64,000 nucleotides of DNA from an uncultured Verrucomicrobia subdivision 3 bacterium (GCA_903835255.1 CAILMI010000026.1:2740-66739), one strand, 5' to 3'; positions 43,270 through 54,212 are shown, counted from the first letter of the stretch. Translations and numbers: made by a program. Notes: a model not told the origin generated them from the sequence alone.

Positions 43270-44124
43270 TTATTTGTTTTTCATCGGCAAACCGTTTCTC
43301 TGAACCACGATGAAGCGGTTTGAGGATTTATATTTGGCGCGCGTCTTGCCGCCCTTAGCCACAAAGCCCCACGGGGACACCAGCTGCTGCCAGCCGCCGC
43401 CGCCCTTGGATTTGCCCTGACCGCCGCCATTGGGATGGTCCACCGGGTTGCGCGCCACGCCGCGGGTGATGCCGCGATGACCGCGGTGCCGGGTGCGGCC
43501 TGCCTTGCCGAGAATGACATTTTCGTGCTCCGTATTGCCGACCTGTCCGATGGTGGCATAGCACTCCTCATTGATGCGACGGATTTCGCCGGACGGGAGC
43601 CGGATCTGCGCAAAACCCTCGTCGCGCGACATCAGCGTGGCCGAACCGCCCGCCGAGCGCACCATCTGACCTCCGCGGCCCGGGGTGATCTCAATGTTGT
43701 GAATCGCCGTGGTGACCGGAATGGACTTGAGCGGCAGAGCATTGCCCACTTCCGGGGGAGCCGTGGGGCCGCTGGAGATTTTAGATCCCACCACCACCCC
43801 GACCGGGGCGATGATGTAGCGCTTGTCGCCGTCGGTATAATCCAACAGCGCCAGGCGAGCCGAACGCATCGGATCGTACTCAATGGCCGAAACCACCGAC
43901 TGAATCCCGTGCTTATTCCGCTTGAAATCCACGAGGCGGATTTTCTGCTTGTGGCCGCCGCCGATGCCGCGCGCGGTGACGCGTCCGTAATGGTTACGGC
44001 CGCCCGATTTCTTTCGCGTGACAACCAGCGACTTCTCGGGCTTCGTCTTCGTAATATCGCTGAAATCTGCGAACGTGACGTAGCGCAGAGACGGCGTTAA
44101 CGGTCTAAAAGATTTAACTGGCAT
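43270..44124 (-). CDS. rplB: 50S ribosomal protein L2
   Basis: GRNHYGRVT, EYDP.RSA, RGVARNPVDHPNGGG; ATG 44124. Confidence 0.98.
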   Translation of the reverse strand: MPVKSFRPLTPSLRYVTFADFSDITKTKPEKSLVVTRKKSGGRNHYGRVTARGIGGGHKQKIRLVDFKRNKHGIQSVVSAIEYDPMRSARLALLDYTDGDKRYIIAPVGVVVGSKISSGPTAPPEVGNALPLKSIPVTTAIHNIEITPGRGGQMVRSAGGSATLMSRDEGFAQIRLPSGEIRRINEECYATIGQVGNTEHENVILGKAGRTRHRGHRGITRGVARNPVDHPNGGGQGKSKGGGGWQQLVSPWGFVAKGGKTRAKYKSSNRFIVVQRNGLPMKNK

Positions 44125-44247
44125 AAATAATATCCAAGTTAGCAACTCTTGGGAGCCGGCGAGCCATTATTCCTGTCCCCGTGAGGGATCAGTTGTCGGT
44201 TCACCATACTTGCTAACCTCTGCATTTTTAGGCGCAAAGGAAAAATG

Positions 44248-44295
44248 AATCTATCAAATGTAAAACGGGATGCAATCCTTTTTTTTATTTTTTTT
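44248..44295 (-). promoter_or_regulatory. Sigma-70 promoter for rplB: UP-like A tract, -35 TTGCAT, 16 bp, extended -10 TG-A-TAGATT
   Basis: On the minus strand: -35 at 44275-44270, -10 at 44253-44248, A-rich tract at 44279-44295. Confidence 0.6.
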
Positions 44296-44548
44296 AGGGC
44301 GGGTTAAAATACACAGTTTACCCGACGTGGCAGGAGTGCGGTGCGCGGCATGCGGCAGAATTGAATCTCCCTAGTAGGCCGCGGGCGGTCGCCGCTCTCA
44401 ACCGCCGGCCAGCTGCGGCGGGCGGATGTCGTTTCGGTTCAGCCAACCGCGTCCCCCTCTTTTCCCGGAGCACTGCGGCTCGCGGTTCATTCCCTAAAGA
44501 GAAGATTATTTCGACACAAATCCCGGCGACTCTGGTACCCTTCCAGGC

Positions 44549-44929
44549 ATGAACGACATCGATCTCACGGGGTTTTCAACCGCCCAACACGAGGCGCTTT
44601 TTGATTTGCTGATCCTGGCCATGTACGCCGACGGGCACCTTTCCTCGCCGGAAGAAGAACGCCTGCAGGAATTGTTGGCGCGCGGGGGATTCGCCGAGGA
44701 GGCGGACCGGCAGCGGCAATGGGATGCCGCCGTGACGCGAATCCGGCCTGGGATTCAATCGATTCAGAAAGCCAAGGAAATGGCCATGGGATTGGCGGGG
44801 GCGTTCACCGACCGCTCCCAGCAAAAACAGGTGCTCGTCGCAGTGGAGCAGATTATGACTTCCGACAACAACCTCAGCACCTGGGAGACCACCCTGCTAT
44901 CGGAACTGCGCTTGAAATTCAGAAGGTGA
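44549..44929 (+). CDS. TerB-like (tellurite resistance family) protein
   Basis: LAMYADGHLSSPEEE ... ADxxL-like C-terminus (MTSDNNLSTWE); extended -10 TGG-TACCCT 7 nt before ATG. Confidence 0.7.
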   Translation: MNDIDLTGFSTAQHEALFDLLILAMYADGHLSSPEEERLQELLARGGFAEEADRQRQWDAAVTRIRPGIQSIQKAKEMAMGLAGAFTDRSQQKQVLVAVEQIMTSDNNLSTWETTLLSELRLKFRR

Positions 44930-45005
44930 GCACGGCGTCGAAAACACCGCCGAAATCCAGCGGCAACAAAAAGTGGCATTGAGTCGGAACCCTGCATTCC
45001 GAATG

Positions 45006-45034
45006 AACCGCCAAGGCTCCAAGGACGCCAAGAG
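45006..45034 (+). repeat. Dispersed 29-bp repeat, copy A
   Basis: AACCGCCAAGGCTCCAAGGACGCCAAGAG, 27/29 identical to 57689-57717. Confidence 0.85.
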
Positions 45035-45202
45035 GCGCTCCAGAACGGCGCAGATTTTTCCCCCGTGTTTGCAGCGGCGGACGTCCTCGCCTGCCGTAGA
45101 ACCGGCGCGTCTCGCCCAGTGGAAAAACCGCGCGCCAATCCAACGCGCCGGACGTATTCGCGAGCCCTTGAAATCGTGTGAATCCCGGGGCAGGCGGCTT
45201 GA

Positions 45203-46984
45203 TTACAGCGCAAGGTTTTTCCGCAACCGCTCCTCCGCCTGTTCGTTGGTCAGGGCTTCCTTCGCACGCAACACCGCCATGCCCACCACCGGCGGATACG
45301 CCTGATCCGCCTTCATGCGCGGCTCCACGTATTCGATGATCTCAAACAGCAGCGCGTTGGCCGCCACATAATCCAAGCGCGTCAGCTGGGCGATGTAACG
45401 CGTCGCACGGTCAATCAACTTCAGATTGCTCGGCACCACCCAAATCATGTAATTGCCCATCACGCGGCCGAGCCGCACCATCGTGCAGGTGGAAACGGCG
45501 TTCATCACCAGCTTCACCGCCACACGCGTCACGCCATCGAGCAGCAAATTCGCTTCGGGCACGGATACCAGAACTGAAATTCCGGCGGCCGACGAAAGAT
45601 CGCCCGCCCGTTCCGGGCCAAAATAAATCAAGCCGGTCTGCGCCTGGTTCTTTTGCGCCGTAGCGAGTTGGTCTAGTTGAAATTGCCGCGCCGACGGCTT
45701 CTCCCCCGCCGCCATGACGGCAATCGCGCTGTCCTTCAATCCGAGCGACCGATGCCGGAGGCCGTGGCGGTCAATTTTGTAGCGCAGCAACTCGGTCGCC
45801 CTGATTTTACCGACGATTTCCAGCGTGCGATCGACTTTCGCCGCCTCCACCAGCCCGCGGACTTCCGCTTCGGCCCACACGACGCAGCGCGGTTCGCGTT
45901 TAAGAATGTTGCGCCAAGCGTCCGACGTCTGCTCGTCAGGCAAAAATAAAAACGCCCAGGATTCGGCGGCCGTGGCGTCGTCAAATTTGCGGAACGGCGG
46001 CGTGCAATAGGTGGGCGAACGCTCGGTCGTGTCCGTTAAAACATCAATGCCCAGGCGATCGGCAAAATAGCTGTTCTGGTGTCCGCTGCGATAAACCGAT
46101 TCCTCCAGCGCAACGATTTTTGCCAGCGCCTCCAGCAGCTCCGGCGAGCGCAGATTTTTGAACAGCTCTTCCAGCCTGGCAAGAAAGTGCGCCGCGACCT
46201 CCGCCGATTTCTGGCCGGAAAGTTCGCAGGCGACGATTTCCAAAATCGCCAGCAAGACGCACAGCTGGATTGACGTCGCCTGCATCCGCGTCGAGCCGGT
46301 GATGCTCATCGGCCCGGTGGCAAGGTTGATCTTTTCGATGCGCGCGTCTTGGATCACCTCGCGGCTGCGCTGAACGTGCTCGCACAAGATGTCATCGGGA
46401 TTGTTATAGACAAAATAAACTTTCGCGCCCGCGTCCACGCCCGCCCAGGCCGTGCCGATGACGAACGAGGTTTCGCCGCCTTCCGTGATGGCGAACACCA
46501 CATCCTTGGCCGACACACCGAGGTCCGCGACTTGTTTTCGACCAAACGCGGTGAAATCCTCGAAGCCTTCCACTGATTTAATGAGCGCGTAATCGCCGCC
46601 AGCCATAACGCTGAAGGTGCGGTTTTCAAAATCAGCGCGGCCGCGCTGCTGCCAGAAATCGCGCCAGATGGAATCCAGCAGAATGCTCAACCGGCCCGTC
46701 GAACCGCAGCCGGTGAAGAAAACCCGCCCGCCGTTTTTAACGGCGGCCAAAACGGTCGCCGCTATTTTTTCCGCGCGGCCGGATGACGCGAACTCGCGAA
46801 ATTTTTTCAGCACGTCTTCATCAGCTTGAAACAGCAAATCCAACGCGGCGGCAATATCGCCTTTTGCCACCTCGCTCAAATGCGCCGTGACCGGGTGCGA
46901 CGATTCGGTGACCAGCGCGCCGAGTTTGAATTGGCCGCTGATCTGCAAAAATTCTTCCGACCGGACTTGAGAACTCGCGCTCAT
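45203..46984 (-). CDS. Double-SIS-domain MurQ/glucokinase-regulator-like sugar-phosphate protein
   Basis: GCGSTGRL, AGG..A....EGFED, TGSTRMQA, and MurQ-like KLVMNAVST..GRVMGNYM..NLKLIDRA; 593 aa, about twice MurQ length. Confidence 0.75.
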   Translation of the reverse strand: MSASSQVRSEEFLQISGQFKLGALVTESSHPVTAHLSEVAKGDIAAALDLLFQADEDVLKKFREFASSGRAEKIAATVLAAVKNGGRVFFTGCGSTGRLSILLDSIWRDFWQQRGRADFENRTFSVMAGGDYALIKSVEGFEDFTAFGRKQVADLGVSAKDVVFAITEGGETSFVIGTAWAGVDAGAKVYFVYNNPDDILCEHVQRSREVIQDARIEKINLATGPMSITGSTRMQATSIQLCVLLAILEIVACELSGQKSAEVAAHFLARLEELFKNLRSPELLEALAKIVALEESVYRSGHQNSYFADRLGIDVLTDTTERSPTYCTPPFRKFDDATAAESWAFLFLPDEQTSDAWRNILKREPRCVVWAEAEVRGLVEAAKVDRTLEIVGKIRATELLRYKIDRHGLRHRSLGLKDSAIAVMAAGEKPSARQFQLDQLATAQKNQAQTGLIYFGPERAGDLSSAAGISVLVSVPEANLLLDGVTRVAVKLVMNAVSTCTMVRLGRVMGNYMIWVVPSNLKLIDRATRYIAQLTRLDYVAANALLFEIIEYVEPRMKADQAYPPVVGMAVLRAKEALTNEQAEERLRKNLAL

Positions 46985-47811
46985 AGATTTGCTTTTGAAA
47001 AAATTGCCGGCTTGGGAAAATTATTGGCCCGCTTGAATTTTTTTGCCGGCGGCGCGGTTTGACATGCCAGCACAAAGCTGCGGAAAATCGCCCGGTAGCA
47101 GGCCCCTTTCTGGACCAGCCGTTCAGGATGAAACTGCACACCCAGGAGGAACGGCATCTGGGCCGCCAGATCCGGCCGAAGTTCAATTGCCTCGACCAGA
47201 CCGTCACAGCTGCGCGCCGTGGCGACAAACGGATCCGCCGGCTCGGCAATTGCCTGATGATGCGTGCTGTTCACGCCCAGGCGGTGTTTCCGGGTGATTT
47301 TTGCCAGCAGCGAGCCGGGCACCACCTCCGTATCGTGCACCAGATCAAACGCCCGATCCATGCGCCGATGGTTCAAGAATCCCGGCGACTGCTTCGCGAT
47401 GTCCGCGATGAGTTTTCCGCCAAACGCCACGTTCAGCAATTGGTGGCCGCGGCAGATGGCCAGCATGGGCTTGCGCTGCCGAAAAATTTCCGCGATCAAA
47501 ATTAATTCAGCCGCGTCGCGCTGGCCCTTGTCCGGCGTCTGCTTCACGGTTTTGAGGATCGCGCGCGGCAGTTTGGCGTCGTAGAGGTTGGGGTTGATGT
47601 CATCGCCGCCGGTAAATAGCACGCCATCCGCATGGCGCACGCTTTCTGCCAGCAAAGCCCGGTCGGTTGTCGCCGGCGCGATGATCGGCAGTCCGCCCGC
47701 CGCCAGGATCGCATTGACATACCGGAGGGATAGGCTGACGGACAAATCACTAAATTCCACACCGCGCAGTTCAACGCTGGGCGTAATCAAAATTAACGGC
47801 GGCCGTTTCAT
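46981..47811 (-). CDS. Gamma-glutamyl-gamma-aminobutyrate hydrolase family (peptidase C26, class I GATase)
   Basis: TGGDDINP, AICRGHQLLNV (Cys), VNSTHHQ, GVQFHPE (His-Glu). Confidence 0.9.
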   Translation of the reverse strand: MKRPPLILITPSVELRGVEFSDLSVSLSLRYVNAILAAGGLPIIAPATTDRALLAESVRHADGVLFTGGDDINPNLYDAKLPRAILKTVKQTPDKGQRDAAELILIAEIFRQRKPMLAICRGHQLLNVAFGGKLIADIAKQSPGFLNHRRMDRAFDLVHDTEVVPGSLLAKITRKHRLGVNSTHHQAIAEPADPFVATARSCDGLVEAIELRPDLAAQMPFLLGVQFHPERLVQKGACYRAIFRSFVLACQTAPPAKKFKRANNFPKPAIFSKANL

Positions 47812-48224
47812 GCCGCAATTTAGAAAAAAAGGCGCCCCCTGTCAGGGAAAAACTGTTTTTTCGGGACCCCAGTTTTTAGGGGTGCGATCGCGAGGAAGAT
47901 GCGCTAGGCGACGCCATCGGGCGGCACAAAATCATATTTAAACGCGCCGCTGGTCGCCACCAGGCTGATCAAGCCTATTGCCCAGACGCGTTTCTCTGCC
48001 AAATTGCGCTTATTAAAATAGTCTCGCTCGATTCGAAAAAATCATTTTTAGACCACTGCGACCGGCTGATGAGACTTCTGTCAAACATCAAGCTTTACGC
48101 TGGCGCGCTCGCGGCCCGCTGGGAAATACTAATTTTGCAACTGGCGGCCTCATTAATCTCTGCTAATCGATATTTTCCAGTGCGAATATTACCCTTCAGG
48201 ATGCTTAATCCGGTTGCGTAACCC

Positions 48225-49538
48225 GTGCCATTGGTGAAAAATTACGAGGTGAAACAAAACAAAACGGGGCTAGCGGCCTCGCCGCCAGCAAATCGCATCA
48301 TGGTGTTGGGTGTCGGCTCGTTCGCGCACAGCATCGGGCGGGCGCTGGCGGACACCGGCGCGGATGTTTCAACGTATCTCACGCGTAATTATGGTCATTT
48401 TGCACCGTCGCTTGTCGGCAAAACTTTTTCGCACGAGACGTTTCCGAGCCCAGTGCCGCTCTTGAGCAAAAACAAAACGGATGTGGCCATCCCGCAGTCC
48501 ATTGACTGGGCGATGCAGCCGTGGGCGAAAAATATGGTGGAATCGGGTGTTGGCATTTTTAGCCCAACCGGGGAGGCGATGAGGATTGAACGCGAACGCG
48601 ATTTTGCGCGCGAACTTTGCGCGCGCTTCAAGATTCCATTTCCAAAATCCTTCGTTGCGTCTAACCGCATCGAAGCCGAGAAAGTCCTCGAAAAAAATCC
48701 GCAGCCATTCGTCATCAAGAATCCGCTCTGCTCGCCGACCAGCCCGGTTCATACAATTTTGTGTGAAACGGTGTCCGACACGCGCGCCTGGCTTCGGCAG
48801 GTGAATTATGCCGAGGGCGTTTTTTTGCAGGAATATCTCGGTCGTGCCGAGGCCGGGCACATTGCACTCGTCAGCGGCGGCGAAATCCATTCGCTCGTGA
48901 CAAACCAGGAATATAAATACGCCTTCAACGGCAACATGGGCATCGTCGCCGGCGCGCCGCTCGGAGGACTGATCGAACGCGACGAAAACGACAAATACGG
49001 CCTGGCGCGGGAATTGATTCATCCGCTGATGCCTTGGCTGCGCGAAGCCCAGTACCATGGGCCGCTCCAAGTGACCGCCATCAAACGGGGCGGCAAATGG
49101 CACGTCATCGAATACAACATCCGCATCGGCATCACTTCCGGCCCGATGATTTTGCGGATGCTAAAAAAGCCGGCGGAAATTATTTTGCGGACGGCGCGGA
49201 ACGAAAAATTAAAGCTGGAGTTCAAAAATAAATTGAACTTCGGCTGCTCGCTCACGCTGGCCGGTTATGGCTATCCGTTCACGCAGGTGCGCGGGCCGCA
49301 GCTGCCGCTGGAGGTGAACGGCAAATTCGACTGCGACGTGTGGTGGAACGAGGTTGCGCGCGGCGCGGACGGCAAACTCATGACCACCGGCCACCGCATC
49401 GCCGATGTGAGCGCGCTGGCGCCAACTCTCAAAACCGCGATCGCCAAAGCTTACGCCAACATCCGTAAAATCCGGGTCGCGGGCAGTTATTTCCGCACGG
49501 ATGTCGGCCAGAGCTTATGGCCGCCGGGTACAGTTTGA
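48225..49538 (+). CDS. PurD (GAR synthetase)-like ATP-grasp ligase, divergent paralog
   Basis: IEYNIRIG, GYGYP, TTGHRI...AYANI....YFRTDVG resemble the PurD C-terminus; PurD GREHA and KADGLAAGKGV motifs absent; start uncertain. Confidence 0.7.
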   Translation: MPLVKNYEVKQNKTGLAASPPANRIMVLGVGSFAHSIGRALADTGADVSTYLTRNYGHFAPSLVGKTFSHETFPSPVPLLSKNKTDVAIPQSIDWAMQPWAKNMVESGVGIFSPTGEAMRIERERDFARELCARFKIPFPKSFVASNRIEAEKVLEKNPQPFVIKNPLCSPTSPVHTILCETVSDTRAWLRQVNYAEGVFLQEYLGRAEAGHIALVSGGEIHSLVTNQEYKYAFNGNMGIVAGAPLGGLIERDENDKYGLARELIHPLMPWLREAQYHGPLQVTAIKRGGKWHVIEYNIRIGITSGPMILRMLKKPAEIILRTARNEKLKLEFKNKLNFGCSLTLAGYGYPFTQVRGPQLPLEVNGKFDCDVWWNEVARGADGKLMTTGHRIADVSALAPTLKTAIAKAYANIRKIRVAGSYFRTDVGQSLWPPGTV

Positions 49539-49543
49539 TTTTC

Positions 49544-49624
49544 AACCATGGAGGGACACGGATCAATGCGATTCCGTTTCGATGCGCTTTCAAAATCTGT
49601 GTCCCTAGGCGTCCTTCCATGGTT
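49544..49624. repeat. Miniature inverted-repeat element
   Basis: AACCATGGAGGGACACGGAT ... ATCTGTGTCCCT..CCATGGTT terminal inverted repeats. Confidence 0.7.
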
Positions 49625-49639
49625 TAATTTGTTCGTTCG

Positions 49640-50791
49640 ATGAAATTGGATTCTGAAAATTTTCCGCTGCGGCCGGCGTGGACTGAGATTGACCTCGGTA
49701 AGCTGCGCCGCAACCTGCAACTCATCCGCAGCGACCTGCCGCGCGGGGTGAAACTGCTCGCCGTCGTGAAAGACGAGGCCTATGGCCATGGCGCCCTCGA
49801 CGTCGCGCGCGTCGCGGTCGAGGAAGGCGCATGGGGCTTTTGCTTGAGCACGCTCGAGGAGGCGATGCTCCTGCGGGAAGGCGGCATCACCGCGCCGCTG
49901 CTGCTTCTCGGCGAACGGCAGGAGGCCGAACTCGAATGGTGCGTCGCGCACCACCTGACGGTTTGCGTGAACGAATTGCACACCGTCCGCAGGCTGGCGA
50001 AAATAGCAGCGGCGTTTGGCAAACAGGTTCCGGTACACGTTAAAATCCACACCGGCATGAGCCGTTACGGCGTGCGCTGGGAAGAGGCGCTGCCGCTCAT
50101 CGAAACAATTGTCGCCGAAAAATCCTTATTGCTCGAAGGCGTGATGACGCATTTCTCGCAGTCGGACGAAGCGGAGAAGAATTTTGCGAACCTTCAATTC
50201 GCGCGGTTCAGCGAAGTGCTGCGCGCGATGGAGCAAAAAGGGATTTCCGTTAAGCTCCGTCACACCTGCAACAGCGGCGGCTTCCTGGATTTGCCTCAGG
50301 CGCATCTGGACATGGTGCGCGTGGGCATTTTGCTTTACGGTGTTTTCCCCTCGCAGGTCTGTCGGAAAATTGAAGGCATCGAACCGGTGATGTCGGTGAA
50401 GGCGAAAATTGCGGCGATCCAAAAACTGAAACCCGGCGAAGTTGTCGGCTACGGGATGCATTACACTGCGCCGTCCGAGCGGCGCATCGCGATTCTTCCT
50501 ATCGGCTACGGCGACGGTTTTCCCCGCGTGCGCAACGAGGGATGCGCGCTCATCCACGGCAGGCGCGCCCCGATCATCGGCGGCATCGCGATGGACGCGC
50601 TGATGGTGGATATCACGGACATTCCGCAGGCGCAGATGTGGGACGAGTCCGTGCTGATGGGCCCGCAAGGCGCCCACGAAATCACCGTGCGCGACATTGC
50701 CAAGCTGAAAAAATCTGTGACATACGACGTGCTGACCAACTGGCGGCTGCGGCTGCGGCGCAAGGCGGTAAACGGTTCAACCACGAATTGA
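49640..50791 (+). CDS. alr: Alanine racemase family protein
   Basis: PLP Lys in AVVKDEAYGHG, KIHTGMSRYG, catalytic Tyr in VGYG, PIGYGDG. Confidence 0.88.
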   Translation: MKLDSENFPLRPAWTEIDLGKLRRNLQLIRSDLPRGVKLLAVVKDEAYGHGALDVARVAVEEGAWGFCLSTLEEAMLLREGGITAPLLLLGERQEAELEWCVAHHLTVCVNELHTVRRLAKIAAAFGKQVPVHVKIHTGMSRYGVRWEEALPLIETIVAEKSLLLEGVMTHFSQSDEAEKNFANLQFARFSEVLRAMEQKGISVKLRHTCNSGGFLDLPQAHLDMVRVGILLYGVFPSQVCRKIEGIEPVMSVKAKIAAIQKLKPGEVVGYGMHYTAPSERRIAILPIGYGDGFPRVRNEGCALIHGRRAPIIGGIAMDALMVDITDIPQAQMWDESVLMGPQGAHEITVRDIAKLKKSVTYDVLTNWRLRLRRKAVNGSTTN

Positions 50792-50854
50792 CACGAACAG
50801 AAACTGTGCCCGCATGATTTGCGGTGCATTGGCGAACTTTCGCGGCTCATTAAA

Positions 50855-51658
50855 ATGAAACTCCTTTTCTCTGAACAAAACTCCGATTACGAGAACTACC
50901 AGTTCCCGTATGCGATCTGGGCCGTTCCCGAACCGGATGAGACGCCAGCGGATATTTTCAACGCCGGATTCCTGCCGTCTTCCCGCAATCTGGACCGGTT
51001 TTATTTGTGTCGCCATGTGCGAGTGAACCTGGCGAAGTTCAAGCCGTCGTCCGAAAATCGCCGCATCCTGCGCAAGGGCGCGGAGATTGAGGTGAAGCTC
51101 GTGGCGCGCGACAAATTCGATTACACGCCGGAACGCCGCCAGTTTTTCAAGACCTACGCCGACATCAAGTTTGGCAAGGACGTGATGACCTACGAGCGTC
51201 TCGACGGGCTGTTCGGCGCGCCGATTATTTCGCATCTGCTCGTATTTACCGATACGGCGAACGGCAAGGAAGTTGGCGTGGCCATGCTGTATCTGGAAGG
51301 CAAGGCGCTGGCGTTTTATTACTATGCTTTCTACGACCTAAATTATTATTCACGAAACCTCGGCATGTTCATGATGACCTCGGCGGTGGCGCTCTTTGCC
51401 GAGCAGGGCAGGGAATTTTTTTATCTGGGCACCTGCTACTCCGACGCGGCGCTTTACAAGACGCAATTTGCCGGCGCGGAATTTTTTAACGGTTTCCGGT
51501 GGTCTTCCAATCTAAAAGAGCTGAAATACATTTTGTGCCGTGACAAAAAAGATTTGCGGCAGCATCTCCTTGAAACCGAGGATTATCGCAAAGAATTTTA
51601 CGGCGGCGATCTTGTCAAAATGACTACCGGAAGCCTGTTTTCAGTCAAGCTGCAGTAG
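50855..51658 (+). CDS. Aminoacyl-tRNA-protein transferase-like (ATE/Bpt fold)
   Basis: R.NL.KFKPSSENRRILRK (ATE_N-like) and YAFYDL....NLG....YLG......YK (ATE_C-like); ATG 50855. Confidence 0.65.
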   Translation: MKLLFSEQNSDYENYQFPYAIWAVPEPDETPADIFNAGFLPSSRNLDRFYLCRHVRVNLAKFKPSSENRRILRKGAEIEVKLVARDKFDYTPERRQFFKTYADIKFGKDVMTYERLDGLFGAPIISHLLVFTDTANGKEVGVAMLYLEGKALAFYYYAFYDLNYYSRNLGMFMMTSAVALFAEQGREFFYLGTCYSDAALYKTQFAGAEFFNGFRWSSNLKELKYILCRDKKDLRQHLLETEDYRKEFYGGDLVKMTTGSLFSVKLQ

Positions 51659-51664
51659 GCGGTT

Positions 51665-52270
51665 TTATCGCGGTCTCACTTGGACGCCCAGCTTCTTTCC
51701 GTCGGTGGCGAATGAGAGGGCTCCCCGATCCAACGCGCCTTCAAACAGGTCGGAGGCGATCAGCAGATTCCCCTCCAAATGCAGGAAATCCCCAGTTCCG
51801 CCAGATGCGCAGCCGCGCGAATCATCACGCTGACTTCGAGCATGCATCCGATCATCGTCTGCAAGCCCGCGTGGCCGCGCCATCTAGGCTCAGCGCGCAC
51901 TTGGCGCTGACGGGAATATCCGGCACGGCTTCGAGATCCGCCATGCTGCCGGGAACATTGCTAAATTTTCCCAAGGTCTAGCTGCGGCAGAAAACTGAGA
52001 AGGCCGTGAGCCGATTTGCCCTACAGGCTGGCCGGCGCGGTCTCGCCGATGGCTGGCAGGCCTAACGCCCGCAGCGGCGAGCTCCACATTCACCGTGCGG
52101 TGAATACCGGAGCCTTGGGAGCTGGCGGTTTTTTGGGGTGGGGCAAGGTTCTGCTCGGACAGGCTTGCGTTCCATTTTACCGGGGAATTCAATAGATTCC
52201 ATCCCGTTTGAAATGCGATTGGAACAATTACGTCCCACCCTGAATTGGCTCTACGCTGTCGGCGTGGCAC
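51665..52270 (-). pseudogene. Decayed L-Ala-D/L-Glu (dipeptide) epimerase, enolase superfamily
   Basis: HAGLQTMIGCMLEVSVMIRAAAHLAEL (frame A) continues after a frameshift near 51790 into DFLHLEGNLLIASDLFEG (frame B); weaker relics ANSGW (~52240) and EQ (~52150); 5' limit approximate. Confidence 0.7.
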
Positions 52271-52533
52271 TCGGCAACATGTCGCTGCACCGCAGTCGCC
52301 ACGTCGCCGAAAAAATAGGATTCCAATCACGGCCAATCAAAATTTTATCGGTAGCCCATCCCTGATTTAGGCGTCGCCGATGGGAAAACAAAACGGAACC
52401 GAACGCGGTACTTTTTCATTTCTTGGCGCTGGGTTTCATGACGTTTTCTGGCGGACATGGCCAAAAAATTGGAAATAGCCAATAAAAACAATGGGGAATC
52501 AATCCAACAAGGGGAGCCATTTCAGGCAGAAGA

Positions 52534-52608
52534 TGGTGCGCGATGGAGGGTTTGAACCTCCGACCCCTACCGTGTCAAGGTAATGCTCTACCACTGAGCT
52601 AACCGCGC
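52534..52608 (-). tRNA. tRNA-Val (GAC)
   Basis: Full cloverleaf: acceptor GCGCGGT/ATCGCGC, anticodon loop TTGACAC, T loop TTCAAAC, encoded CCA. Confidence 0.97.
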
Positions 52609-52949
52609 AACTACACCGACTTTTTAAAAATCGATAATTGATTTTAAAAAACCGGCCCAAATACTCTCAAAAAAAGTCCCGCAGCGCAATTTCATTTTCG
52701 AGGACGGGGATAGATTCAAAGCCGGTCACCCCAGAAAACACCACCGAACGGCATCGGGGGAGACGGCTGGGGATCCCGCATCACCCGCCCGGACCACGCT
52801 TTTGAAGCGGTTTAACGGCGACGGGAGCGGAACCTGGATCCGCACCTGCCCCCGGCGTCCGGTGCATTTTTTTCAAGGTACTCTGCAAAAGAACATGGCG
52901 ATTTCGGCGCCGTTTTTGATAATGTCTTCAGCGCATAAGCAACAACACC

Positions 52950-54212
52950 ATGAACCACTATCTTTCTCTGGGGAAATTTTCCTTTGGCATGGGCGACCGT
53001 TTTGGCCAGCAAGGCCGTGCGCAGCTGCGGGCCTGCGTGCTCGCCACCGAACTGGGCGCCCATTTCGTGCCAGTCTGGAACAAATCCAACCGCGAGCATT
53101 CCTTCATCGGCACCGAGCCGTCCAGCTTGCGCGCCGAGGCCGATGCGGCCGTGCAGGCGCTTGGCTGGAAAAGCCCCTATCACGTGGACGCCGATCACAT
53201 CCGCCTAGAGACGGTGGATCGCTTCATCGCGCCCTCGGATTTTTTCACGATTGATGTGGCGGATAGCATCGGCAAGCCGGCCGCCGCCGCCGATGTGAAG
53301 GCGTTTGTGGACCGTCACCCCGAACTCATCGGCACCGTGTCCATCCCGCATATCGACCAGCCTTTTGCCATTTCCCGCGCCGAAGTGGAGCGGGTGGCCA
53401 ACAAATTCCTGCTGGCCGTTCAGGATGCGGGGAAGATCTACCAGCACATCGTCCGGGCCAAGGGCGCGGAGCACTTCATCACCGAAGTTTCCATGGACGA
53501 AACGGACAGCCCGCAGACCCCGCCGGAGCTGCTGATCATCCTGGCGGCGATCGCCGACCAGAAAATCCCCCTGCAGACCATTGCCCCCAAATTCACCGGC
53601 CGTTTTAACAAGGGCGTGGACTACGTGGGGGATGTGAAACAATTCGAGAAGGAATTCAACGAGGACCTCGCCGTCATCGCCTATGCCATCCAAAAATACG
53701 GCCTGCCGCCGTCGCTGAAGCTGAGCGTCCACTCCGGCAGCGACAAATTTTCCATATACGAGCCGATGCGCCGCGCCCTGAAGAAGTTTGATGCGGGGGT
53801 GCACATCAAGACGGCGGGCACGACCTGGCTGGAGGAGATCATCGGGCTGGCGGAAGCGGGCGGGGATGGCCTGGAGATCGCAAAGGAAATCTACGCCTAC
53901 GCGCGGGAGCATGTGGATGAATTCTGCGCGCCTTACGCCAGCGTGATTGACATCAATCCGGCGCAGCTGCCGACGGCGGCGGTGGTAAATGCATGGAGTT
54001 CGGAGCAATTTGTTTCCGCGCTCCGGCACGACCGGAAAAACCCAGGATACAACCCGAGCTTCCGTCAGTTGCTGCATGTGAGCTTCAAGGTGGCGGCGAA
54101 AAAAGGCGACCGCTATCTGAAGGCGCTCAAAAATCACGAGGCAGTTGTGGCCCGGAACGTCACTGAAAACCTGTTTGAGCGGCACATGAAACCCCTGCTG
54201 CTCGGCTCCTAA
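52950..54212 (+). CDS. uxaE: Tagaturonate/fructuronate epimerase (UxaE family)
   Basis: SFGMGDRF, YHVDADHI, EVSMDET, KLSVHSGSDKF, HIKTAGTTWLE; next to uxaC. Confidence 0.85.
   Translation: MNHYLSLGKFSFGMGDRFGQQGRAQLRACVLATELGAHFVPVWNKSNREHSFIGTEPSSLRAEADAAVQALGWKSPYHVDADHIRLETVDRFIAPSDFFTIDVADSIGKPAAAADVKAFVDRHPELIGTVSIPHIDQPFAISRAEVERVANKFLLAVQDAGKIYQHIVRAKGAEHFITEVSMDETDSPQTPPELLIILAAIADQKIPLQTIAPKFTGRFNKGVDYVGDVKQFEKEFNEDLAVIAYAIQKYGLPPSLKLSVHSGSDKFSIYEPMRRALKKFDAGVHIKTAGTTWLEEIIGLAEAGGDGLEIAKEIYAYAREHVDEFCAPYASVIDINPAQLPTAAVVNAWSSEQFVSALRHDRKNPGYNPSFRQLLHVSFKVAAKKGDRYLKALKNHEAVVARNVTENLFERHMKPLLLGS

Follow-up and report, generated by a model that had tools for sequence, protein, structure and literature searches.

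Which genes of a crowded bacterial locus act together, and what could their products make? This question is raised by positions 45203–52270 of a 64,000-nucleotide stretch of DNA (hereafter the window; CAILMI010000026.1:2740-66739 of assembly GCA_903835255.1) from an uncultured Verrucomicrobia subdivision 3 bacterium. An original prediction, made from the sequence of the window, had combined a PurD-like ATP-grasp ligase (PurDl), an alanine racemase (Alr) and an ATE/Bpt-like aminoacyl-tRNA transferase homologue (ATEl) with a facing hydrolase/MurQ-like gene pair and a decayed epimerase into one peptide or cell-wall amino acid system lying just 3′ of a tRNA-Val. Here, we show that the conserved object is a two-to-three-gene cassette and that the other genes of this block are local scenery. 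We propose, as a reading that we moderately favor, that this self-contained Verrucomicrobial cassette (PurDl, then a dedicated Alr, then usually ATEl) makes a D-alanine (D-Ala)-containing amide or short peptide conjugate in the cytoplasm.

To this end, PurD-like loci were gathered from 14 relatives and 80 species-representative genomes (94 genome loci) and from 80 Joint Genome Institute (JGI) metagenome contigs. Among the 66 species-level genome loci with at least 5 kb of downstream sequence, 53 show the order PurDl–Alr–ATEl on the same strand, and this order persists in families that are only ∼50% identical and in a complete genome from another family of the class, where the three genes are separated by gaps of 0–30 bp or overlap. 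Co-localization of the three genes in other genomes, by which the original prediction had proposed to be judged, was accordingly found in many of them. The metagenome loci provide an independent sample, in which the ligase is 55–87% identical to PurDl of the window and GC content ranges from 0.38 to 0.69; PurDl is immediately followed by Alr in 53 of 58 of these loci, and ATEl is the third gene in 28 of 43. The ligase–racemase pair is the tighter core of the cassette and ATEl its usual third member, while no additional gene recurs beside them in genome or metagenome loci.

The phyletic pattern was analyzed for PurDl and ATEl in 41 genomes of the genus and order. Both genes are present in 27 genomes and both are absent from nine; the remaining five are discordant, several of which are explained by contigs starting inside Alr. 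Taken together, these observations show that the cassette is a co-inherited unit. Its carriers are Verrucomicrobia of the order Limisphaerales/subdivision 3, joined by at least one genome from another family of the class; the related records are metagenome-assembled genomes (MAGs) labelled Verrucomicrobia subdivision 3 or Limisphaerales and obtained from lakes, bogs and soils, and the window sequence itself was found in lake-water metagenome runs. Across the phylum, clear ATEl orthologues were observed in only 3 of the 301 genomes sampled, namely the window's own genome and two genomes of another family. Four more of the 301 genomes encode 30%-identical ATEl relatives in unrelated contexts. 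At L120:8126-8902(+) (genome G307, another Verrucomicrobial family), a 30%-identical ATE-like/Acetyltransf_6 protein is encoded beside a lipoate/biotin-ligase-like gene and convergently with a Mur ligase gene, a context that is not common to two sister genomes.

Alr scores well above the TIGR00492 cut-off of 168 bits (Table 1) and reaches 317 bits on the VanT-G catalytic model. Its translation contains the motifs AVVKDEAYGHG (Lys binding pyridoxal 5′-phosphate), VGYG (catalytic Tyr) and AMD as well as the Tyr in SVTYDV, which we take to match the residues of the G. stearothermophilus enzyme, including the Tyr354 equivalent that presumably excludes serine. The Alrs linked to the cassette group in a clade of their own, set apart with 100/100 support from those standing alone in cassette-lacking relatives; identity between the two groups is 31–37%, and genome G033 carries both a linked-clade Alr and a stand-alone one. 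This phylogenetic separation argues that the cassette racemase is a dedicated enzyme. Other relatives have only the stand-alone Alr of 31–37% identity, and five genomes (G015, G029, G030, G034 and G038, two of them 96–98% complete) have no Alr-family match at E ≤ 1e-30, a threshold that may hide divergent genes.

These data also bear on the simpler view that the three genes share synteny and not a pathway, with Alr as a housekeeping enzyme and PurDl and ATEl inherited alongside it in separate roles. Such an explanation would accommodate that Alr is the single Alr-family match of the window's genome, that opposite-strand genes split PurDl from Alr in many loci, that a few MAGs have PurDl, Alr and ATEl on separate contigs, and that much of the wider neighborhood (thiH, dus and others) simply reflects vertically inherited gene order in the genus. 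It is nevertheless hard to reconcile with a gene order that holds down to ∼50% identity, across the whole GC range given above and into another family while all other neighbors change, with the joint presence or absence of the three genes across genomes, and with the distinct clade of the linked Alr, which coexists with a stand-alone Alr in G033. We therefore consider synteny without a shared pathway unlikely, albeit the most serious of the alternatives discussed here.

Contrary to the outcome that would have told against the original prediction, PurDl is not the only purD of its genome: a canonical purD (510 bits) is present on contig C54, and a ddl gene was likewise identified. PurDl itself does not reach the equivalog cut-off of TIGR00877, the model for PurD/glycinamide ribonucleotide (GAR) synthetase (Table 1). 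The AlphaFold2 model of PurDl (predicted local distance difference test score, pLDDT, 83) retrieved 15 PurD structures first, over the full length and with template modeling (TM) scores of 0.72–0.79, and displays the four-domain N-B-A-C fold of PurD. The ATP-grasp residues K140, Q177-E178, K206, E271, N273 and R275, comprising the Mg/ATP ligands and the acyl-phosphate Arg, are retained, as are R366 and the C-domain G-x-R motif with its Arg, and K140, K206, E271, N273 and R275 are invariant in 13–15 sequences.

The sites that in PurD contact the other substrates are, in contrast, replaced. The phosphoribosylamine (PRA) loop with Arg13/Glu14 reads GSFAHS in PurDl instead of GGREHA, and the B-loop reads PLCSPTSP instead of GLAAGK; at the glycine ligands, QDHK (Asp217) has become QEYK (E204), and GDPE (Asp295/Glu297) has become GITS (I278/S280). 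The roles of these PurD residues (human numbering) are taken from previous studies (PMC2978367, PMC8880213). Within the PurDl family the replacement residues are themselves invariant or nearly so. This combination of a preserved core and consistently altered substrate sites suggests that PurDl is an active ligase with new substrates. That PurDl might instead be a redundant or specialized GAR synthetase of purine synthesis is, despite its full-length PurD fold and PurD as its best sequence match, the least probable of the explanations weighed here, given the canonical purD elsewhere in the genome, the low TIGR00877 score, the loss of R13/E14 of GGREHA, of the B-loop and of D295/E297 in favor of family-invariant residues, and the absence of linked pur genes.

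The PurDl family is small: 1.84 billion representatives contain 63 clusters that match at E ≤ 1e-30, beyond which true PurDs start at 24–29% identity. A metagenome scan for the contexts of the most divergent PurDl relatives (33–40% identity) returned only the Verrucomicrobial type. Several relatives carry an in-frame insertion of ∼20 amino acids in the A domain of PurDl (GQASSLSPSKKKLETGKMPVLR in L035, 8258-9559; also in G002, G012, G016, G019 and G022). In a single case (L044:7053-9239(+), corresponding to G023:C3), a 728-amino-acid open reading frame (ORF) carries a Glyco_tranf_2_4 domain (82 bits) as an in-frame fusion at the PurDl N-terminus, which hints only weakly at a connection with the envelope or with glycans.

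ATEl, the only ATE-like gene product of the genome, is found at the edge of its family. Against a cut-off of 25 bits, the Pfam model ATE_C gave 24.8 bits for the protein sequence and 26.3 bits when the genome was scanned, and the NCBIfam arginyltransferase models gave 52 bits versus cut-offs of 170–358. In the PDB, the AlphaFold2 model (pLDDT 79) most closely matches ATE1 (8tzv, 8e3s and 7wg*), followed by MprF aminoacyl-phosphatidylglycerol synthase domains, FemX and the tRNA-dependent peptide synthase Sba18 (Foldseek E-values of 1e-6 to 1e-7), such that the top-ranked fold matches are all aminoacyl-tRNA transferases. A profile search of ATEl against PDB sequences yielded no useful match, and the Pfam family FemAB did not match ATEl, whose likeness to FemX is one of fold only. 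The dyad Y201-K202 is invariant in the ATEl family and aligned with Tyr303-Lys304 of KlAte1, which are essential and equivalent to K305 of FemX (PMC9351520); in addition, ATEl has the motif YLGT.Y...YK in common with ATE1/Bpt.

The determinants of the known ATE substrates are less apparent. The N-terminal 100 residues of ATEl contain one Cys only, and the cysteines of the C4 zinc finger are missing. A family-invariant GFLPSS is present where ATE/Bpt proteins have the basic GFRRSG, an equivalence that we infer, as the ATEl N-terminus did not align in hidden Markov model searches; in ATE, the basic pocket (Arg80) serves the acidic N-terminal residue of the acceptor (PMC9351520). The positions matching the Arg-binding residues of KlAte1 are F154, M173, A177 and F189 in a weak alignment (E = 0.018), and such a hydrophobic donor pocket suggests an uncharged donor amino acid. 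Judged by their residues, PurDl and ATEl lack the features that determine the known substrates of their families, and each of the three cassette proteins keeps its catalytic core.

A role in protein modification was considered at this point, in which ATEl would be a Bpt-type N-degron transferase acting on N-terminal Asp/Glu and PurDl a protein-modifying ligase with a RimK/TTL-like logic. ATE1 and Bpt are indeed the nearest relatives of ATEl by sequence and by fold, and the genome contains no second ATE-like gene. However, neither ClpS (PF02617), the N-recognin, nor Aat (PF03588), the Leu/Phe-tRNA-protein transferase, was matched in this 97.5%-complete genome, under search conditions that matched the expected carriers among control genomes (5 of 14 for ClpS and 4 of 14 for Aat). 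The Leu/N-degron pathway therefore seems to be absent from the window's organism, and a classical N-degron role for ATEl is unlikely. The missing zinc-finger cysteines, the replacement of the basic GFRRSG by an invariant GFLPSS, the score far below the Bpt model cut-offs and the linkage to a racemase, an enzyme that N-degron tagging does not involve, point in the same direction, making protein modification a distinctly improbable function of the cassette.

Considering these findings, we propose the following pathway for the synthesis of a D-Ala-containing conjugate. In a first step, Alr would convert L-Ala into D-Ala, in agreement with its enzyme family and catalytic residues. In a second step, PurDl would activate a small carboxylate as its acyl-phosphate at the expense of ATP and join it to an amine other than PRA, in keeping with an intact ATP-grasp core and the loss of the PRA and glycine determinants; D-Ala is the presumed carboxylate, because the adjacency of ligase and racemase is near-obligate. 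In a third step, ATEl would take an uncharged amino acid from its tRNA and attach it to a free amino group of the PurDl product; fold and catalytic dyad are apparent for this step, and its donor type and non-protein acceptor are putative.

The first two steps have precedents in the racemase and ATP-grasp ligase pairs of peptidoglycan variation, namely VanT/VanC (D-Ser, D-Ala-D-Ser) and Rac_fm/Asl_fm of Enterococcus faecium (D-Asp side chain), and by analogy Alr may feed D-Ala to PurDl. As in these systems, whose racemases are PLP-dependent or of another type, the racemase gene adjoins and is co-inherited with the gene of an ATP-grasp ligase, here a ligase that putatively uses a D-amino acid, and the cassette is accessory with a patchy distribution. 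In contrast to them, the ligase is PurD-derived and not of the Ddl type, the racemase has the Tyr that marks specificity for alanine and not for serine, and the cassette includes a tRNA-dependent transferase but is not linked to resistance genes or to genes of the VanX/VanY type; its host is a Gram-negative Verrucomicrobium. For the third step, FemX/FemABX, the C-domain of MprF and Sba18 provide the precedents from which extension of the product amine by ATEl may be envisaged; they share with ATEl the double-GNAT aminoacyl-tRNA transferase fold, a catalytic Lys at the equivalent place and, in the case of ATEl putatively, non-protein acceptors. Unlike this group, ATEl has neither a Pfam FemAB or DUF2156 match nor a membrane domain, and its sequence falls into the ATE/Bpt branch. 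From ATE1/Bpt, with which it shares the best fold match, the threshold ATE_C match and the above motifs, it differs by the loss of the zinc finger and of the basic acceptor pocket motif, by the hydrophobic donor pocket and by its linkage to alr in a genome without ClpS and Aat, and not to N-degron genes. PurDl likewise resembles PurD in fold and in its Mg/ATP residues but represents a small paralogous family with altered substrate sites in a genome with a true purD.

As candidate acceptor we place the side chain of a peptidoglycan precursor first and a soluble peptide metabolite second; the gene neighborhood, in which no Mur, Fem, penicillin-binding protein (PBP), exporter or tailoring genes accompany the cassette, does not discriminate between the two. 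More specifically, the cassette might equip the peptidoglycan precursors of Verrucomicrobia with a so far undescribed side chain or bridge, with PurDl attaching D-Ala and ATEl extending it from aminoacyl-tRNA, a suggestion that we regard as possible but less likely than not.

Several observations weigh against the proposed pathway. Apart from the lack of linked Mur, Fem, PBP, transporter/exporter or tailoring genes, the substrates assigned to the cassette enzymes are putative only. PurDl lacks two of the three acidic residues by which PurD holds the glycine amino group (D295/E297, now I278/S280), and therefore an α-amino acid as its acyl donor is not assured. The mapping of the ATEl donor pocket is weak, as noted above. 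About one third of the loci lack ATEl, and one genome with the ligase–racemase pair has no transferase anywhere, indicating that ATEl is dispensable in some lineages. Alr being the sole racemase of the window's genome, its linkage could partly reflect housekeeping use. Finally, 1.7–6.5 kb of other DNA, often including an opposite-strand membrane-protein gene, lie between PurDl and Alr in 18 of 59 genome loci, and co-transcription is therefore not obligatory.

If the proposed pathway is true, the PurD descendant would represent a new enzyme lineage among ribosome-independent peptide-bond makers, and the ATE/Bpt family, which is not known to act outside the N-degron tagging of proteins, would have a bacterial branch with another job; under the peptidoglycan side-chain reading, ATEl would be without precedent among ATE/Bpt enzymes in using a non-protein acceptor, and PurDl would be the first PurD descendant acting as a peptide ligase. 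Full-text literature searches returned no paper on the combination of PurDl, Alr and ATEl. The carriers are abundant, poorly cultured Verrucomicrobia of freshwater, peat and soil, whose cell envelope chemistry is almost unstudied, and a dedicated D-Ala-consuming cassette would point to an unknown wall modification or metabolite in these organisms. Moreover, the three genes are small and their products soluble, which opens them to direct testing.

Table 1. Features of the window at and around the cassette.
Feature	Position	Strand	Supporting match
Double-SIS MurQ/GKRP-like gene, 593 aa	45203-46984	−	GKRP_SIS_N match; MurQ PRK05441, 169 bits
Peptidase_C26 / class-I glutamine amidotransferase-type hydrolase	46981-47811	−	Peptidase_C26, 181 bits
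PurD-like ATP-grasp ligase (PurDl), 412 aa	48300-49538	+	TIGR00877, 113 bits, below cut-off 288
Alanine racemase (Alr)	49640-50791	+	TIGR00492, 357 bits
ATE/Bpt-like aminoacyl-tRNA transferase homologue (ATEl), 267 aa	50855-51658	+	ATE_C, 24.8-26.3 bits
Decayed enolase-superfamily (dipeptide-epimerase-like) gene relic	~51668-52180	−	tblastn with intact paralog
tRNA-Val(GAC)	52534-52608	−	ARAGORN and Rfam

Turning to the remainder of the block, ORF lists and family scans placed every gene named in the original prediction where it had been described and in the right family, and ARAGORN and Rfam identified the tRNA-Val beside the block (Table 1). The decayed epimerase is real as well: using the intact 350-amino-acid enolase-superfamily paralog on contig C40 (C40:33253) as tblastn query, the relic was resolved into four collinear minus-strand pieces, the best of which is 81% identical over 27 amino acids, with frame changes and with residues ∼110–277 missing. 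Pfam models alone did not detect it.

The presence of these genes might suggest a larger system, in which both divergent operons and the epimerase would build and dismantle a gamma-glutamyl or D-amino-acid peptide, and the 4-bp overlap of the C26 and double-SIS ORFs would fit such an arrangement. The comparison with related genomes speaks strongly against it. The C26 gene, the epimerase and the tRNA-Val occur near PurDl in none of the 94 related genome loci and the SIS gene in one; the SIS gene is present in 20 of the 41 relatives, on contigs other than that of the cassette, and C26 is absent from its flanks in the 11 relatives inspected. The epimerase is a dead paralog fragment, and no compositional island is seen. 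We thus regard the larger system as very improbable, and conclude that the C26 hydrolase, the SIS gene, the epimerase relic and the tRNA-Val are unrelated neighbors and not cassette members. Of the peptide/cell-wall system originally envisaged, the ligase–racemase–transferase core stands as a plausible proposal, whereas the five-to-six-gene block as a unit and the participation of the facing C26/MurQ-like operon and the epimerase found no support; gamma-glutamyl chemistry and peptidoglycan recycling likewise draw no evidence from the C26 gene, the MurQ-like gene, the epimerase relic and the tRNA, which are features of this genome only.

The codon usage of the block, supposed to be more AT-rich than that of the flanks, turned out to be ordinary: the GC content at third codon positions (GC3) of the five genes is 0.675–0.753, within the interquartile range of the genome (0.646–0.775). 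ATEl alone is low in overall GC (0.519), and its GC3 is normal. A compositional island acquired by horizontal gene transfer was rejected on the basis of the ordinary GC3, and the tRNA-Val as integration site was rejected since no tRNA-Val is found in any of the 94 related loci.

Other neighbors were evaluated in a similar manner. A thiH gene (radical-SAM 2-iminoacetate synthase-like, 400 amino acids) is the divergent upstream neighbor of PurDl in 43 related loci (e.g. L023:7459-8661(-)), and its place is occupied by the C26 and SIS genes in the window's genome; as a functional partner it was rejected, since this arrangement is confined to the close lineage and is not seen in more distant families. 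In ∼22 related genomes, a multi-pass membrane protein of 570–740 amino acids is encoded on the opposite strand between PurDl and Alr, sometimes in two tandem copies (e.g. L099:5745-7475(-), L100, L103 and L104). This protein has no Pfam, NCBIfam or PDB match, and it was rejected as a requirement of the cassette because the window's genome encodes no homologue. An apparent Alr–ATEl fusion protein (P0083) proved to be an artifact, as its assembly is riddled with frameshifts that leave PurDl, Alr and ATEl all in fragments. PADLOC gave no match for any of the five window proteins, and an anti-phage defense function was rejected.

Two gene starts were refined. The PurDl ORF opens at GTG 48225, and the conserved start, ATG 48300, is the likely one because homologue alignments begin only at residue ∼22–26 of the long ORF; similarly, the ATEl ORF opens at TTG 50819, and the conserved ATG 50855 is the likely start because homologue alignments begin at ORF residue 13. 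The spacer between the C26 gene and the ligase (window positions 47812-48299) is an unusually long non-coding stretch (410–490 bp) between divergent genes. An Rfam search for riboswitches and other known RNAs in this spacer and throughout positions 44000-53000 returned the tRNA only, and a promoter and terminator scan, including the spacer, gave no more sites than shuffled sequence. Lastly, lake metatranscriptome contigs that are 95–99% identical to the window span PurDl, reach 49 nucleotides beyond its stop codon and also include parts of Alr, which shows transcription of PurDl and Alr in a close relative, albeit not proving an operon.

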